This document shows positions 26,110 to 31,002 of a stretch of 64,000 nucleotides of DNA, in pieces (position 1 is the first letter of the stretch; every line of letters starts with the position of its first letter). The stretch lies in assembly GCF_054482595.1 (NCBI RefSeq), contig NZ_CM137008.1; one strand, 5' to 3'. The notes under the pieces were generated by a model. The model ran no database searches, had not been told where the DNA came from, and was given only the letters and a program-made list of their open reading frames with translations. The position numbers and the translations under genes are program-made.

Positions 26110-26741
26110 AACGACGTGACACCATCGTGCGCTACACCGCGCCGGAACGTATCAACCACTGGATCACCGCCTTCTGCTTCATCCTGGCGGCGGTGAGCGG
26201 GCTGGGCTTTTTGTTCCCGTCCTTCAACTGGTTGATGCAAATCATGGGCACACCGCAGCTGGCGCGAATTCTGCACCCGTTTGTCGGCGTGGTTATGTTT
26301 GCCTCGTTCATCATCATGTTTTTCCGTTACTGGCATCACAACCTAATCAATCGGGATGATATCTTTTGGGCGAAGAATATTCGTAAGATCGTCGTCAACG
26401 AGGAAGTAGGTGACACCGGGCGTTATAACTTCGGTCAGAAATGCGTTTTCTGGGCGGCGATTATTTTCCTGGTTCTGCTGCTGGTGAGCGGCGTGATTAT
26501 CTGGCGTCCTTATTTTGCGCCTGCTTTCTCAATCCCGGTGATCCGATTCGCGTTAATGCTGCATTCATTTGCCGCAGTGGCGTTAATTGTGGTTATCATG
26601 GTGCATATCTACGCCGCCCTTTGGGTGAAAGGCACGATTACCGCCATGGTGGAAGGATGGGTTACCAGCGCCTGGGCGAAGAAACATCACCCGCGCTGGT
26701 ACCGTGAGGTCCGCAAGACAACGGAAAAGAAAGCTGAATGA
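26106..26741 (+). CDS. fdoI: Formate dehydrogenase-O cytochrome b556 subunit
   Basis: 211 aa; four TM helices with heme-ligand His; 4-bp overlaps on both sides. Confidence 0.95.
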
Positions 26742-27667: not shown

Positions 27668-27848
27668 TCTCTGACGTTTTCCGGGTGGCGCTGGTCGCCC
27701 GGATTACAGCTCATAGGGTGTGACGACACCATCTCTCGTATTCCGCGTTACCCATTCAAGATCATGCCGCAATTGTCTGTTTGCCTCGTTCTTCCCTCCA
27801 ACACATCGATAAGGTTATGGGTATGTCACTGATGACAAGCGTATGATT

Positions 27849-27947
27849 GCCTGATGCGCTGCGCTTATCAGCCCTACCAATAAACTTCAATATATTGAAT
27901 TTGCATGACTTTGTAGGCCGGATAAGGCGTTCACGCCGCATCCGGCA
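27849..27947. repeat. REP/BIME pair
   Basis: GCCTGATGCGCTGCGCTTATCAGCCCTAC and TGTAGGCCGGATAAGGCGTTCACGCCGCATCCGGCA after fdhE. Confidence 0.8.
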
Positions 27948-27996
27948 TGAACAACGCGCACGTTGTCAGCAATCTGATTGACATCATTTTTTCCCA

Positions 27997-28215
27997 TTAC
28001 CATTCCTCGCGCAGCTTACGCTGATATTCGACACCATCTTCCTCACACCCTTGCCAGATGCCAGGAACACTGGTTCTTGCTGTTTGCGATTGATTTATCA
28101 GGTATTGATCTACCGCTTCCCTTAATAGGTCCGCACGAGGAAGATTACGCTGCACCTCGAGATCATCAAGTTGCTTAATCACCTCATTCGATAAATCGAG
28201 TAAAATTCTGCCCAT
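27997..28215 (-). CDS. yiiF: Small ribbon-helix-helix (CopG/Arc-like) protein
   Basis: 72 aa from [39 protein letters not shown]...; RHH signature; paralogous to yiiE. Confidence 0.8.
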
Positions 28216-28332
28216 ATCTATACCTACCAGAGAGTTCATAAATATCTCGCCAATATCATTTTTGAATCTATGGAGAGAAAAGTACCCTTGTCGAATCTTT
28301 AAAGAAAGCTCATTTACGAATCATTTTTTATT

Positions 28333-28352
28333 TTTGCGAGGCGTTTTCCAGA
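28333..28352 (-). promoter_or_regulatory. Copy 1 of conserved 20-bp motif TTTGCGAGG(C/T)G(T/C)TTTCCAGA, about 120-135 bp upstream of yiiF
   Basis: tttgcgaggcgttttccaga; extended similarity to copy 2 continues through ...GTTGCAGTT. Confidence 0.5.
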
Positions 28353-28458
28353 TATGATGTAACAGTTGCAGTTATTATAAGTTCAAGTAAAACAACCTTG
28401 TATTAATACCAGAATAAGGGCATCTGGTTTTTTATATTCAAGAATAAAAAAATTTTTG

Positions 28459-28677
28459 TCATTCCTTATGATCCTTACACTGATCATAAACACCTACTGT
28501 CTCACCCCTTTGCCTGCCTCTCTTTGCTTTACGCACCGGAAATTGCTGCCGCTCCAGATATTGCTCAACCGCTTCGCGTAAAATTGCAGATCGTGAAACC
28601 TTACGCCAGCCCCGAAGCTTGTTCAGCCGTTTAATTGCCTCTTCTGATAAATGAAGAAAAACCGTATTCATCGCCAT
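28459..28677 (-). CDS. yiiE: Small ribbon-helix-helix (CopG-like) protein
   Basis: 72 aa from MAMNTVFLHLSEEAIKRLNKLRGWRKVSRSAILREAVEQYL...; GGTGG RBS; shares L.LS.E.IK.L...R..LREAV.QYL with yiiF. Confidence 0.8.
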   Translation of the reverse strand: MAMNTVFLHLSEEAIKRLNKLRGWRKVSRSAILREAVEQYLERQQFPVRKAKRGRQRGETVGVYDQCKDHKE

Positions 28678-28772: not shown

Positions 28773-28792
28773 TTTGCGAGGTGTTTTCCAGA
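28773..28792 (-). promoter_or_regulatory. Copy 2 of conserved 20-bp motif, about 100-115 bp upstream of yiiE
   Basis: tttgcgaggtgttttccaga followed by ...GTGTTGCAGTTG as in copy 1. Confidence 0.5.
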
Positions 28793-29262: not shown

Positions 29263-29553
29263 CTAACGGTTAAGTGCTTGCAGCACATGTTGCGGATCAT
29301 TGGCAATCGCTCGCAGCAAAGCCTTTGCAGGCCCGGTCGGTGAACGTCGCCCCTGCTCCCAGTTACGCAACGTGTCTACGCTTACAGAAATAAGATCGGC
29401 AAATTTAGATTGTGACAACCCTGAAGCGCGGCGTATTTCTTTGATTTTCATAGCATCAACTTCAAAAGTCCGCGAAGGCTGTCGCGTTCCTTCAATAATT
29501 TCATTCATCTGGGCCATGCTGTGAGTCAACCGCTCAAAAAGTGCCTTATCCAT
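29263..29553 (-). CDS. HTH-XRE family DNA-binding protein, putative HigA-like antitoxin
   Basis: 96 aa; C-terminal HTH (IKEIRRASGLSQSKFADLISVSVDTLRNWEQGRR); GAGGTGG RBS inside the upstream toxin gene; ATG directly abuts the toxin stop (TGG-TAA-ATG). Confidence 0.7.
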   Translation of the reverse strand: MDKALFERLTHSMAQMNEIIEGTRQPSRTFEVDAMKIKEIRRASGLSQSKFADLISVSVDTLRNWEQGRRSPTGPAKALLRAIANDPQHVLQALNR

Positions 29554-29865
29554 TTACCACCTCGTATTTAACAACCGGAGCATTGCTTTTTCCTGGGGAG
29601 ACAGATCATCTTTAATACCCTTACGATAAATAAGCAGTAATCTGATCTCATAATGTTTAACCTGATGAAAGTAAATAACCCTGACACCAGCACGTTTCCC
29701 CTTTCCTCCTGAAACCCATCGAACCTTTCTTAACCCACCAGTTTCAGGTATTACCTCACCATAGTCAGGATTCAAGGCCAGGAAAAACTGAAAACGACTG
29801 AATTCATCGTCGGTCAGCAGTTTTTGAACATCTTCAGTAAAAATTTCCGTTTCGATGAAGAGCAT
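29554..29865 (-). CDS. RelE/ParE-superfamily toxin, HigB-like (toxin encoded upstream of its antitoxin)
   Basis: 103 aa; pattern ...GGLRKVRW...GKGKRAGVRVIYF.....IRLLLIYRKGIKDDLSPQE... typical of HigB-type addiction-module killer proteins; gene order toxin then HTH antitoxin with zero spacing. Confidence 0.65.
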   Translation of the reverse strand: MLFIETEIFTEDVQKLLTDDEFSRFQFFLALNPDYGEVIPETGGLRKVRWVSGGKGKRAGVRVIYFHQVKHYEIRLLLIYRKGIKDDLSPQEKAMLRLLNTRW

Positions 29866-29902
29866 AATTATACGCCATTGGCTTAGAGTAACAATCCTTT
29901 TT

Positions 29903-29986: not shown

Positions 29987-30006
29987 TTTGCGAGGCGCTT
30001 TCCAGA
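29987..30006 (-). promoter_or_regulatory. Copy 3 of conserved 20-bp motif, about 120-140 bp upstream of the toxin-antitoxin operon
   Basis: tttgcgaggcgctttccaga; 18-19/20 identity to copies 1 and 2. Confidence 0.5.
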
Positions 30007-30093
30007 TTTTTCACGCCCGTGAATTTCCCTGTATCCATCCAGCAAAAACGGGTGTATAAGACTGTGCATTCATACAGCAAAATAAGTTCTACT

Positions 30094-31002
30094 ATGGCAC
30101 TGGAAAAAGGAATTGCAGAGTTAGTCGAAAAGTTTATCGCTGCGGGTCGCCCCTCATCGCGTCAACAAAGTATTGCGCAGCGCAGGGAGGGCTATATCGC
30201 CAGCGCTGTCCTTGCGGGTGAGACAGAAACGCGGGTAGATATTCAGACTATCGAACTTGAAGGGATGACCTTACGAATAGTGTCGCCGCTGAATGCCCCG
30301 ACATTACTCCCGACGATAATTTATTACTACGGTGGCTGTTTTGTTAGCGGCGGGTTCGCAACTCACGACAACCAGCTGCGCCAGTTAGCCTATTACGGGC
30401 AATGTCGGGTTATTGCCGTCCAGTATCGGCTGGCACCGGAACATACTTTCCCCGCCGCCCATGATGATGCGCAACGAGGTGCAGAAATAGTCTGGCAACA
30501 CGCCGAACGACTCGGCGTTGATAAACAACGTATAACTCTTGCCGGTGACAGTGCGGGCGGACATCTGGCGCTGGTAACTGCTTTGCGATTAAAGCGTGCT
30601 GGCGAGTGGCAACCGGCACAACTCATCTTAATTTATCCTATGCTTGATGCGACTGCGCATTTCGAAAGCTACATACGCAATGGTCACGATTACATCATCA
30701 CACGCGACACTTTACTGAGCGGCTTTGAGATGTATCTGCCAGGCATTGAACGCAGGCATCCTGAAGCCAGCCCTCTTTGGCGCGATGATTTCAATGGCTT
30801 GCCACCTGTACATATCATTACCGCTGAATACGACCCACTTTGCGATGAAGGTGAAGCGTTGTATCACCGCATGACAGGGCAAGGAGTGCAATGCACCTGC
30901 CAACGCTACCTTGGCGTTATCCACGGATTTTTTCAGTTAGGTGGTATCAGCGAGGCCGCGCGATCGGCACTACGGGATGTTGCCTGGAGAGCGGGAAGGT
31001 AA
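30094..31002 (+). CDS. Alpha/beta-hydrolase esterase/lipase, hormone-sensitive-lipase family
   Basis: Oxyanion-hole motif YYYGGCFVSGG, nucleophile elbow GDSAGG, downstream Asp/His (VIHGFF); start uncertain (ATG 30094 chosen; ORF opens at GTG 30019). Confidence 0.75.
   Translation: MALEKGIAELVEKFIAAGRPSSRQQSIAQRREGYIASAVLAGETETRVDIQTIELEGMTLRIVSPLNAPTLLPTIIYYYGGCFVSGGFATHDNQLRQLAYYGQCRVIAVQYRLAPEHTFPAAHDDAQRGAEIVWQHAERLGVDKQRITLAGDSAGGHLALVTALRLKRAGEWQPAQLILIYPMLDATAHFESYIRNGHDYIITRDTLLSGFEMYLPGIERRHPEASPLWRDDFNGLPPVHIITAEYDPLCDEGEALYHRMTGQGVQCTCQRYLGVIHGFFQLGGISEAARSALRDVAWRAGR

Follow-up and report, generated by a model that had tools for sequence, protein, structure and literature searches.

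Escherichia coli yiiF as a probable orphaned vapB antitoxin gene and yiiE as its probable tandem duplicate, both behind predicted CRP-S sites

Introduction

The genes yiiF and yiiE of Escherichia coli stand in tandem in the interval between fabY (yiiD) and fdhE, and each encodes a small protein that resembles an antitoxin, which raises the question of where the two genes come from and what became of their toxins. We analysed them in a stretch of 64,000 nucleotides (nt) of contig NZ_CM137008.1 (RefSeq assembly GCF_054482595.1), hereafter the window, in which the 3.5 kb around the pair are 100% identical to E. coli XH990. A preliminary description, made from the letters of the window, had placed two open reading frames (ORFs) of 72 amino acids (aa) at 27997-28677, and both are indeed present there on the minus strand. 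It read them as tandem paralogs with the ribbon-helix-helix (RHH) fold and the layout of CopG/ParD-type antitoxins, and it offered two views of them, i.e., remnants of toxin-antitoxin modules or dedicated regulators of the islet. In the explanation that we regard as highly probable, yiiF is a VapB antitoxin gene orphaned by the decay of vapC, yiiE is an older tandem duplicate that keeps the DNA-binding part, and the motif upstream of both genes is a CRP-S site, at which cAMP-CRP acts together with Sxy.

Family and genomic context of yiiF

YiiF aligns end to end with chain A of the PDB entry 7BY2 (E 8e-44), a "CopG family transcriptional regulator" that was crystallised together with "Ribonuclease VapC". 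The two chains are VapBC of Klebsiella pneumoniae, which, as cited in PMC11117207, is a published and structurally characterised pair (7BY2/7BY3; Kang et al. 2020, J Med Chem 63:13669, PMID 33146528); the VapC of 7BY2 matches the E. coli VapC with E 9e-63. The alignment includes the toxin-binding C-terminal region, and YiiF keeps the tail signature FG(L/I)W...DG(V/L)xYQxxLRxEW that is common to full-length members of its family. Word-indexed homolog searches gave enterobacterial sequences only, and it was a profile search among 1.84 billion representative proteins that reached the wider YiiF family of 781 clusters at E <= 0.001. All three distant members whose surroundings were checked are followed by an overlapping PIN gene. 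Because of the common tail signature and the overlapping PIN genes downstream, we assign the YiiF family to the RHH type of VapB.

The genomic context agrees with this assignment. In every genus traced, namely Salmonella enterica subsp. diarizonae, Citrobacter freundii, Klebsiella sp. and Pseudocitrobacter and a Serratia-labelled contig, the YiiF ortholog occupies the fabY-fdhE interval and is followed by an overlapping PIN gene of 122-126 aa; the order in the Klebsiella genome examined is fabY-hydrolase-vapBC-fdhE. E. coli itself is polymorphic. Full-length matches to the Salmonella vapBC DNA, with the PIN gene adjoining vapB as in the orthologs, are present in 57 of 5,426 complete E. coli genomes (1%), where RefSeq labels the two genes "CopG family transcriptional regulator" and "type II toxin-antitoxin system VapC family toxin"; two of these genomes have the order fabY ... 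yiiE - vapB - vapC - fdhE. The gene yiiF/vapB as such is found in 4,744 of the 5,426 genomes and is absent from about 13% of them, and exactly 57 of the genomes that have it fall into a divergent class, with 80-90% identity to the window allele.

Relics of vapC in the window

No intact PIN ORF lies downstream of yiiF in the window, and only relics of vapC are found there. In an alignment of the window with an E. coli locus whose vapBC is intact (L010), homology extends across yiiE and yiiF up to the former vapC start codon, is broken at a repeat of the repetitive extragenic palindromic (REP) type, and is weakly resumed afterwards (Table 1). Rfam gives sub-threshold matches to the REP-derived naRNA4 and ES036 at 27870-27952. 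The repeat segment has tens of matching places per genome, which is consistent with a dispersed repeat. The 5'-proximal relic of vapC also gives a weak tblastn alignment (THNLIDVLEGR vs TNILIDLFSGR), about 215 nt of vapC are absent between it and the 3' relic, and the latter reads HDLEWVTRNTRD-----GVVTPYEL (tblastn with E. coli VapC, E 5.5e-7; with Salmonella VapC, E 1e-5; blastn 88% to L010).

In the window, as in about 86% of the complete E. coli genomes, vapC was destroyed when part of it was deleted and a REP element inserted, and vapB has been orphaned. The statement of the preliminary description that no cognate toxin ORF follows either gene holds at the level of ORFs and fails below it, in that a decayed vapC follows yiiF; yiiF is an orphaned antitoxin gene. 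For yiiF, the syntenic vapBC modules, which other genera and 1% of E. coli possess, together with the vapC relics in the window, decide in favour of a toxin-antitoxin remnant. For yiiE the same reading follows from its descent, as the tandem duplicate of vapB.

Fold of the two proteins

Both proteins show the strand-helix-helix of about 45 residues that defines the RHH superfamily, by profile or structure comparison, so the fold proposed at the outset is borne out and the non-RHH outcome that would have spoken against it did not appear. YiiF matches Pfam RHH_1 weakly (E 0.0072), and its structure is solved: a PDB sequence search identifies the entry 2K5J, which has two chains in the PDB table and is titled "uncharacterized protein yiiF", as the 80-aa form of the protein. 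YiiE matches Pfam RHH_1 with E 1.6e-11. Its AlphaFold (AF2) model has an extended N-terminus, helices at residues 12-25 and 29-43 (per-residue confidence, pLDDT, about 90) and a disordered tail, and its top Foldseek match is 2K5J, followed by the CopG-DNA complex 1B01 (root-mean-square deviation 1.5 A over 43 columns); VapB26 of Mycobacterium tuberculosis, NikR, Arc and ParD are among the further matches. By sequence, the nearest PDB relatives of YiiE are the Klebsiella VapB 7BY2_A (E 1.6e-7) and YiiF 2K5J (E 3.6e-6).

The antitoxin-like RHH layout is therefore confirmed and the family needs correction, as it is VapB and not ParD: the ParD profiles gave zero matches for YiiE and YiiF, and the partner in the orthologs is a PIN protein, not ParE. 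NCBIfam gave only sub-threshold matches for the two proteins (LexA-regulated protein YbfE, RelB-like).

The duplicate yiiE

YiiE and YiiF share 23 of 56 residues (41%) over their N-terminal two thirds (BLASTP, E 4e-12), and some 100 nt of DNA in front of the two genes can be aligned as well (71%), the period being 440 nt. Since protein identity and upstream DNA agree in this way, chance likeness is excluded and the pair arose by tandem duplication of promoter and gene, as had been surmised from the ORFs. The duplication is older than the loss of vapC, because yiiE precedes vapB in strains that keep vapBC. YiiE homologs were found in Escherichia and Shigella only, and within E. coli the gene is present in 5,387 of the 5,426 complete genomes (99.3%).

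The two parts of YiiE have fared differently. In a comparison of six alleles, nonsynonymous differences in the RHH domain (aa 1-45) number 0-1 and synonymous ones 1-7, and the tail (aa 46-72) has a ratio of nonsynonymous to synonymous substitution rates (dN/dS) of 0.25-0.9 and lacks the W, DG and LRxEW that are conserved in the family alignment; YiiE of E. fergusonii still has a VapB-like tail end. At all loci examined, yiiE is followed by the promoter of vapB/yiiF and not by a PIN gene. With neither the tail signature nor an adjoining PIN gene, yiiE is, as far as its sequence tells, a VapB homolog by descent rather than a functional VapB member. Seven database proteins combine a YiiE N-terminus with a YiiF tail and one has the reverse combination, and such reciprocal chimeras, which occur in E. 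coli and E. albertii, indicate that the two copies exchange homologous DNA, as unequal crossing-over of tandem paralogs would bring about.

The DNA-facing residues of the beta-strand are R, L and D in YiiF (MGRILLDL) vs T, F and H in YiiE (MNTVFLHL), and the DNA specificity of YiiE probably differs from that of YiiF. YiiE is best described as a putative domesticated RHH DNA-binding protein of antitoxin descent and not as an antitoxin; with the RHH domain constrained, the VapC-binding signature lost and the tail drifting, it is most likely only a small predicted DNA-binding protein. SlyA overexpression raises yiiE expression 2.5-fold, and many genes of that set are repressed by H-NS (PMC5797941). 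The gene yiiF is among the silver-resistant hits of a silver screen (PMC6071238).

Selection on yiiF after the loss of the toxin

By the Nei-Gojobori method, dN/dS is about 0.04 when partnered vapB of E. coli is compared with that of Pseudocitrobacter, 0.16-0.31 when orphan E. coli vapB/yiiF alleles are set against partnered ones, and 0.2-0.7 among orphan yiiF alleles, the yiiF counts being small (4-15 substitutions per class). The extra changes of the orphans fall on RHH positions that are otherwise invariant across genera and, above all, in the linker. The 20-residue tail has only 0-2 replacements, and in the window it equals, residue for residue, the tail of the E. coli VapB with a surviving VapC. 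Around the start of vapB, the 23-nt block ATGATATACTGGAGGTATATRTG, which holds a perfect 6-bp inverted repeat ATATAC/GTATAT around the Shine-Dalgarno sequence GGAGG, is invariant in seven partnered loci of six genera and mutated in five of five orphan alleles. We infer that the constraint on this block ended when the toxin was lost, and the pattern of yiiF as a whole fits relaxed yet still present selection.

Two further readings of the orphan were considered. Orphan YiiF might be kept as an anti-addiction (immunity) factor against VapC that arrives by recombination or on mobile DNA from strains or genera with the intact module. The identity of the orphan tail with that of an E. coli VapB accompanied by VapC, the co-existence of intact and orphan states in E. 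coli, and the recombination-prone nature of this chimera-rich hotspot would all suit such a role. The intact module is, however, so rare (1%) that selection would be weak, and the translation-initiation region of the orphans is degraded; we consider this role doubtful.

The opposite view, by which yiiF and perhaps yiiE are functionless relics in neutral decay since the toxin was lost, we judge unlikely. It would account for the raised dN/dS of the orphans (0.2-0.7 vs 0.04), the loss of the Shine-Dalgarno/inverted-repeat block in all of them, the absence of yiiF from about 13% of genomes, and the truncated and chimeric variants in databases. It does not sit well with an ORF that is intact in 4,734 genomes, with a YiiF tail that has 0-2 nonsynonymous changes despite synonymous change, or with the perfect conservation of the predicted CRP-S site; as to yiiE, purifying selection on the RHH domain is clear and the gene is retained in 99.3% of genomes.

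The shared upstream motif

The motif CTGGAAARCRCCTCGCAAA (gene strand) occurs in three copies in the 64 kb, where 0.05 are expected, and these precede yiiF, yiiE and the neighbouring operon for a RelE-like toxin and a NadS-family antitoxin; the shared motif of the preliminary description is therefore real. Read on the opposite strand it is TTTGCGAGGCG(C/T)TTTCCAG, i.e., TGCGA-N6-TTCCA, a pattern found in the window at exactly these three sites (0.2 expected) and fitted exactly by all of them. The asymmetric CRP-S core of E. coli is T4G5C6G7A8-N6-T15T16C17C18A19 (Sondberg et al. 2019, PMC6728893, quoting Sinha et al. 2009), and CRP-S sites are described as active in either orientation and at a class-I-like position (PMC6728893; Cameron & Redfield 2006, PMC1635313). 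Measured from the start codons of the three units, the centres of the sites are 103-132 nt upstream, and the yiiF site is centred about 84 nt upstream of the start that its sole sigma-70-like hexamer pair implies. Upstream of vapB the motif is kept in every genus examined and its flanks are not conserved; the arrangement at the third site, between the RelE-like/NadS operon and a divergent hydrolase gene, recurs in Pseudocitrobacter, Siccibacter and Leclercia.

The K-12 sxy promoter has a CRP-S site that was reportedly studied by Jaskolska and Gerdes in 2015. This site, TCGGAAAGAGCCTCGCAAA, which has been dissected by experiment, agrees with the motif at 17 of 19 positions, has the same orientation and lies at a similar distance (127 nt) from the sxy ATG, and it differs in its weak half-site TTCCG, which is TTCCA at yiiE and yiiF (PMC6728893). 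Control by Sxy and CRP-S is documented for hicAB P1, higBA, chpSB and hokD in E. coli and for toxTA in Haemophilus influenzae (PMC11951105; PMC6957337). Because the motif fits the CRP-S site and elsewhere precedes unrelated toxin-antitoxin families, dfp and sxy/tfoX, it is by all appearances a CRP-S site rather than an RHH operator. Each of the yiiE, yiiF and RelE-like/NadS units carries such a site, and for this reason they are predicted to be induced together by cAMP-CRP and Sxy.

These findings count against the second view of the preliminary description, here taken to mean that YiiE and YiiF are dedicated repressors of the islet and that the 19-nt motif is the common operator through which they control themselves and RelE-like/NadS. 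RHH antitoxins of type II toxin-antitoxin systems are normally autorepressors, and three copies before three transcription units speak for such a scheme. The motif is, however, asymmetric, an exact CRP-S fit and nearly identical to the sxy promoter site; it stands before non-homologous antitoxin families of the AbrB, helix-turn-helix (HTH) and RHH types, before dfp and before tfoX in genomes or loci without yiiE and yiiF, and it lies far upstream (about 100-130 nt), another conserved inverted repeat being found at the vapB start. A common operator is also improbable because the beta-strand residues of the two proteins differ, and altogether we think this role very unlikely. It is hardly conceivable that the motif is a sigma-54 promoter (GG-N10-GC: TGGAAAACGCCTCGCA), whose -24/-12 layout its spacing and GG/GC dinucleotides would fit, as the tables and supplements of the chromatin immunoprecipitation sequencing study of Bonocora et al. 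2015 examined here hold no sigma-54 site at yiiE, yiiF or dfp despite perfect K-12 copies and do hold one 2 kb away in fdoI, and as the motif stands in either orientation relative to genes (relBE beside cybC), which fits CRP-S and not a promoter. Compared by eye with consensus sequences, the motif showed no fit to promoters of the sigma-70, sigma-E or sigma-32 type, to a marbox, or to sites for PurR, FadR or LexA, and as regards known RNAs Rfam gave the sub-threshold REP-derived matches only.

The motif beyond this locus

The motif was also sought in the genomes of 100,044 species, a scan in which about 35 chance matches are expected overall and from which the following instances are counted among the matches listed. 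The scattered non-enteric matches can be put down to these chance matches, and in Enterobacterales the motif occurs at several loci per genome. Of about 70 instances, roughly 37 adjoin type II toxin-antitoxin modules; upstream of four of these the distances are +117/118 nt to the MGRILL codon for vapBC, +122-125 for RelE-like/NadS, +95-111 for gp49-type HigB and about +134 for ccdAB. At these four, some 95-135 nt upstream, the 19 nt are nearly the same throughout, the GSCGYT spacer included. Further instances lie upstream of dfp/coaBC and, in Pantoea, of tfoX. One copy precedes a prlF relic in a single divergent Escherichia genome, and typical E. coli has a degenerate copy with three mismatches before prlF-yhaV. 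The record of that divergent genome, E. coli SCPM-O-B-8794 (L055-L057), is about 88-89% identical to typical E. coli at garD and probably represents another Escherichia lineage.

The motif also adjoins, in inverted orientation, a relBE pair beside cybC. Between cybC and nrdG, 391 of the 5,426 E. coli genomes carry a 707-nt relBE module in place of 39 nt of the empty site (L078 4621-5327 vs L145 422-460), and the inverted CRP-S motif is part of this insert, where it stands directly upstream of the operator/promoter of relBE; the module therefore takes the site along when it moves. An att-like insertion target was considered for the motif and rejected at this one locus, whose empty form is without the motif and whose insert has it about 100 nt from the edge.

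We tentatively propose, as a possibility that still has more against it than for it, that the chromosomal type II toxin-antitoxin modules of Enterobacteriaceae generally have the CRP-S site as a portable front end, which moves with the inserting module. If so, much of the toxin-antitoxin complement, including the orphaned or domesticated YiiF and YiiE, would belong to one Sxy-triggered response tied to DNA uptake, with a role, for example, in protection against incoming addiction modules, and the conserved spacer might carry a Sxy determinant.

Origin of the pair and relation to known systems

To return to orphaning and duplication as the origin of yiiF and yiiE, the course of events was probably as follows. 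A vapBC module, with vapB as the gene for an RHH antitoxin and autorepressor, would have occupied the fabY-fdhE islet across Enterobacteriaceae; a unit of about 440 nt, promoter and vapB, would have been duplicated in tandem to give yiiE; and an internal deletion and a REP insertion would later have destroyed vapC and orphaned vapB (yiiF). The N-terminal RHH dimer of YiiF would bind DNA and its C-terminal tail would wrap VapC, as has been shown for relatives. YiiE, with its RHH domain kept and its tail drifting, would have become a small DNA-binding protein of different specificity, and cAMP-CRP with Sxy would induce yiiE, yiiF and RelE-like/NadS together, as reported for hicAB, higBA and chpSB.

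Several points weigh against parts of this explanation. The substitution counts behind the yiiF dN/dS values are low, as given above, and the start codon of yiiF/vapB is ambiguous: the distant members of the family start where the 72-aa form does, and the conserved GGAGG of the partnered loci, which is lost in orphan alleles, serves the 80-aa form. The ATGATATACTGGAGGTATATRTG block is a candidate VapB operator and translation-initiation region, the operator role being suggested by its inverted repeat. Membership of yiiE and yiiF in the Sxy regulon is a prediction from the sites, and the literature searched yielded neither expression or binding data on the two genes nor a paper that links them to Sxy. 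The spacer GSCGYT is more conserved than known CRP-S function requires; either a shared ancestry of the promoter modules or a further constraint could be the reason.

Chromosomal toxin-antitoxin modules in decay, and antitoxins left without a toxin, are known in E. coli, e.g., from the decay of ccdO157, and the anti-addiction idea comes from the ccd of Erwinia. In ccdO157-type decay, too, the module is polymorphic within the species, the toxin is inactivated in many strains and the antitoxin is kept; what differs here is the family, VapBC, and an antitoxin that was duplicated, with one copy domesticated. The closest relative is VapBC of K. pneumoniae, whose VapB is an 82-aa CopG/RHH protein that aligns with YiiF from end to end and has the same tail motif, and whose VapC is orthologous to that of E. 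coli, whereas the window has no functional vapC, the block upstream of its vapB is mutated, and E. coli has the extra paralog yiiE. The solution structure 2K5J of Shigella flexneri YiiF (Northeast Structural Genomics) is of the same protein and is the top structural match of the YiiE model, and the entry, named "uncharacterized protein", makes no link to VapC or to a toxin loss. E. coli hicAB and H. influenzae toxTA combine an upstream CRP-S site with an antitoxin-controlled element near the gene (PMC6957337; PMC11951105), which resembles the predicted CRP-S site and the conserved inverted repeat at the start of yiiF/vapB, although toxin and antitoxin there belong to other families, the toxin is absent at yiiF, and the Sxy dependence of yiiE and yiiF is only predicted.

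All components are thus of known kinds, i.e., a VapB with solved structures, orphan or decaying toxin-antitoxin modules, and CRP-S sites at toxin-antitoxin promoters. Four points seem not to have been described before in the literature searched, namely the explicit identification of yiiF with a vapB that was orphaned and has vapC relics beside it, the view of yiiE as a duplicate that became domesticated, the presence of CRP-S sites before both genes, and the breadth of the association of this site with toxin-antitoxin modules; the literal motif sequence was not found there either. Two long-standing "y-genes" of E. coli K-12, yiiF and yiiE, would thereby gain a concrete origin. E. coli, whose strain K-12 is usually described without vapBC, is polymorphic for the intact module at fabY-fdhE, and the intact, orphaned and duplicated states form a natural series in which the fate of an antitoxin can be followed once its toxin is gone. 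The predicted Sxy/CRP-S regulon membership extends a connection that is still little understood, the one between the regulation of competence and toxin-antitoxin systems.

Neighbouring genes and other features

The fabY-fdhE interval is a toxin-antitoxin hotspot with genome-dependent cargo, which includes the conserved hydrolase, vapBC, RelE-like/NadS, HigBA, ParDE and others. The adjoining toxin-antitoxin pair of the preliminary description is present in the window, its toxin, taken there as HigB-like, being RelE-like and having its own NadS antitoxin; we saw no sign of pairing with YiiE or YiiF.

Table 1. Positions in the window of the genes, relics and sites discussed. PGAP, NCBI Prokaryotic Genome Annotation Pipeline; BIME, bacterial interspersed mosaic element.
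Feature	Position	Strand	Remarks
Copy of intragenic sigma-54 site IS47	26259-26275	+	CTGGCGCGAATTCTGCA; inside fdoI
vapC 3' relic	27707-27766	-	VapC residues 100-124 minus 5 codons; original stop codon kept
vapC 5'-proximal relic	27763-27824	-	about codons 9-30; blastn 75% over 64 nt to L010 3759-3822, E 1.1e-5
REP/BIME-type repeat	27845-27955		in former vapC space; no counterpart in intact locus L010
Former vapC start codon	27995-27997	-	overlaps yiiF stop (TAATG); from alignment with L010
yiiF, K-12 form	27997-28215	-	72 aa; start at 28215 (MGRILL...)
yiiF, PGAP form	27997-28239	-	80 aa
Degenerate version of 23-nt block ATGATATACTGGAGGTATATRTG	28237-28259	-	vapB start region
Putative CRP-S site TGCGAGGCGTTTTCCA	28335-28350	+	upstream of yiiF; centre ~103 nt before 80-aa ATG
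yiiE	28459-28677	-	72 aa; tandem paralog of vapB; RHH aa 1-45, degenerate tail aa 46-72
Putative CRP-S site TGCGAGGTGTTTTCCA	28775-28790	+	upstream of yiiE; centre ~105 nt before ATG
NadS-family HTH antitoxin gene	29263-29553	-	96 aa; NCBIfam NF041265, 60.7 bits vs cut-off 60
RelE-like toxin gene	29554-29865	-	103 aa; Pfam PF06296 RelE weak, E 0.0062; hypothetical in PGAP
Sigma-70-like hexamer pair	29863-29894	-	TTGTTA-16-TATAAT, 10/12
Putative CRP-S site TGCGAGGCGCTTTCCA	29989-30004	+	upstream of RelE-like/NadS operon; intergenic with divergent hydrolase gene
Alpha/beta hydrolase gene	30019-31002	+	hormone-sensitive-lipase type; NCBIfam LipP1 239 bits vs cut-off 350

The best sigma-70-like hexamer pair of the region ends directly before the ATG of the RelE-like gene, so that the transcript would be leaderless unless the true start is another one. 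In most genera examined, the alpha/beta hydrolase gene and the first toxin-antitoxin unit are divergent; the hydrolase gene is a pseudogene with a broken frame in the Salmonella locus L008 and is absent from K-12. The site inside fdoI is an exact copy of IS47 of Bonocora et al. 2015. Other strains carry further genes next to the pair: in the urinary isolate E05 (L002 1782-3395) a DUF6708 protein and a hypothetical protein are encoded between the two RHH genes, and in O157:H7 (L003 4269-6083) two hypothetical proteins of about 300 aa are encoded upstream of yiiE.

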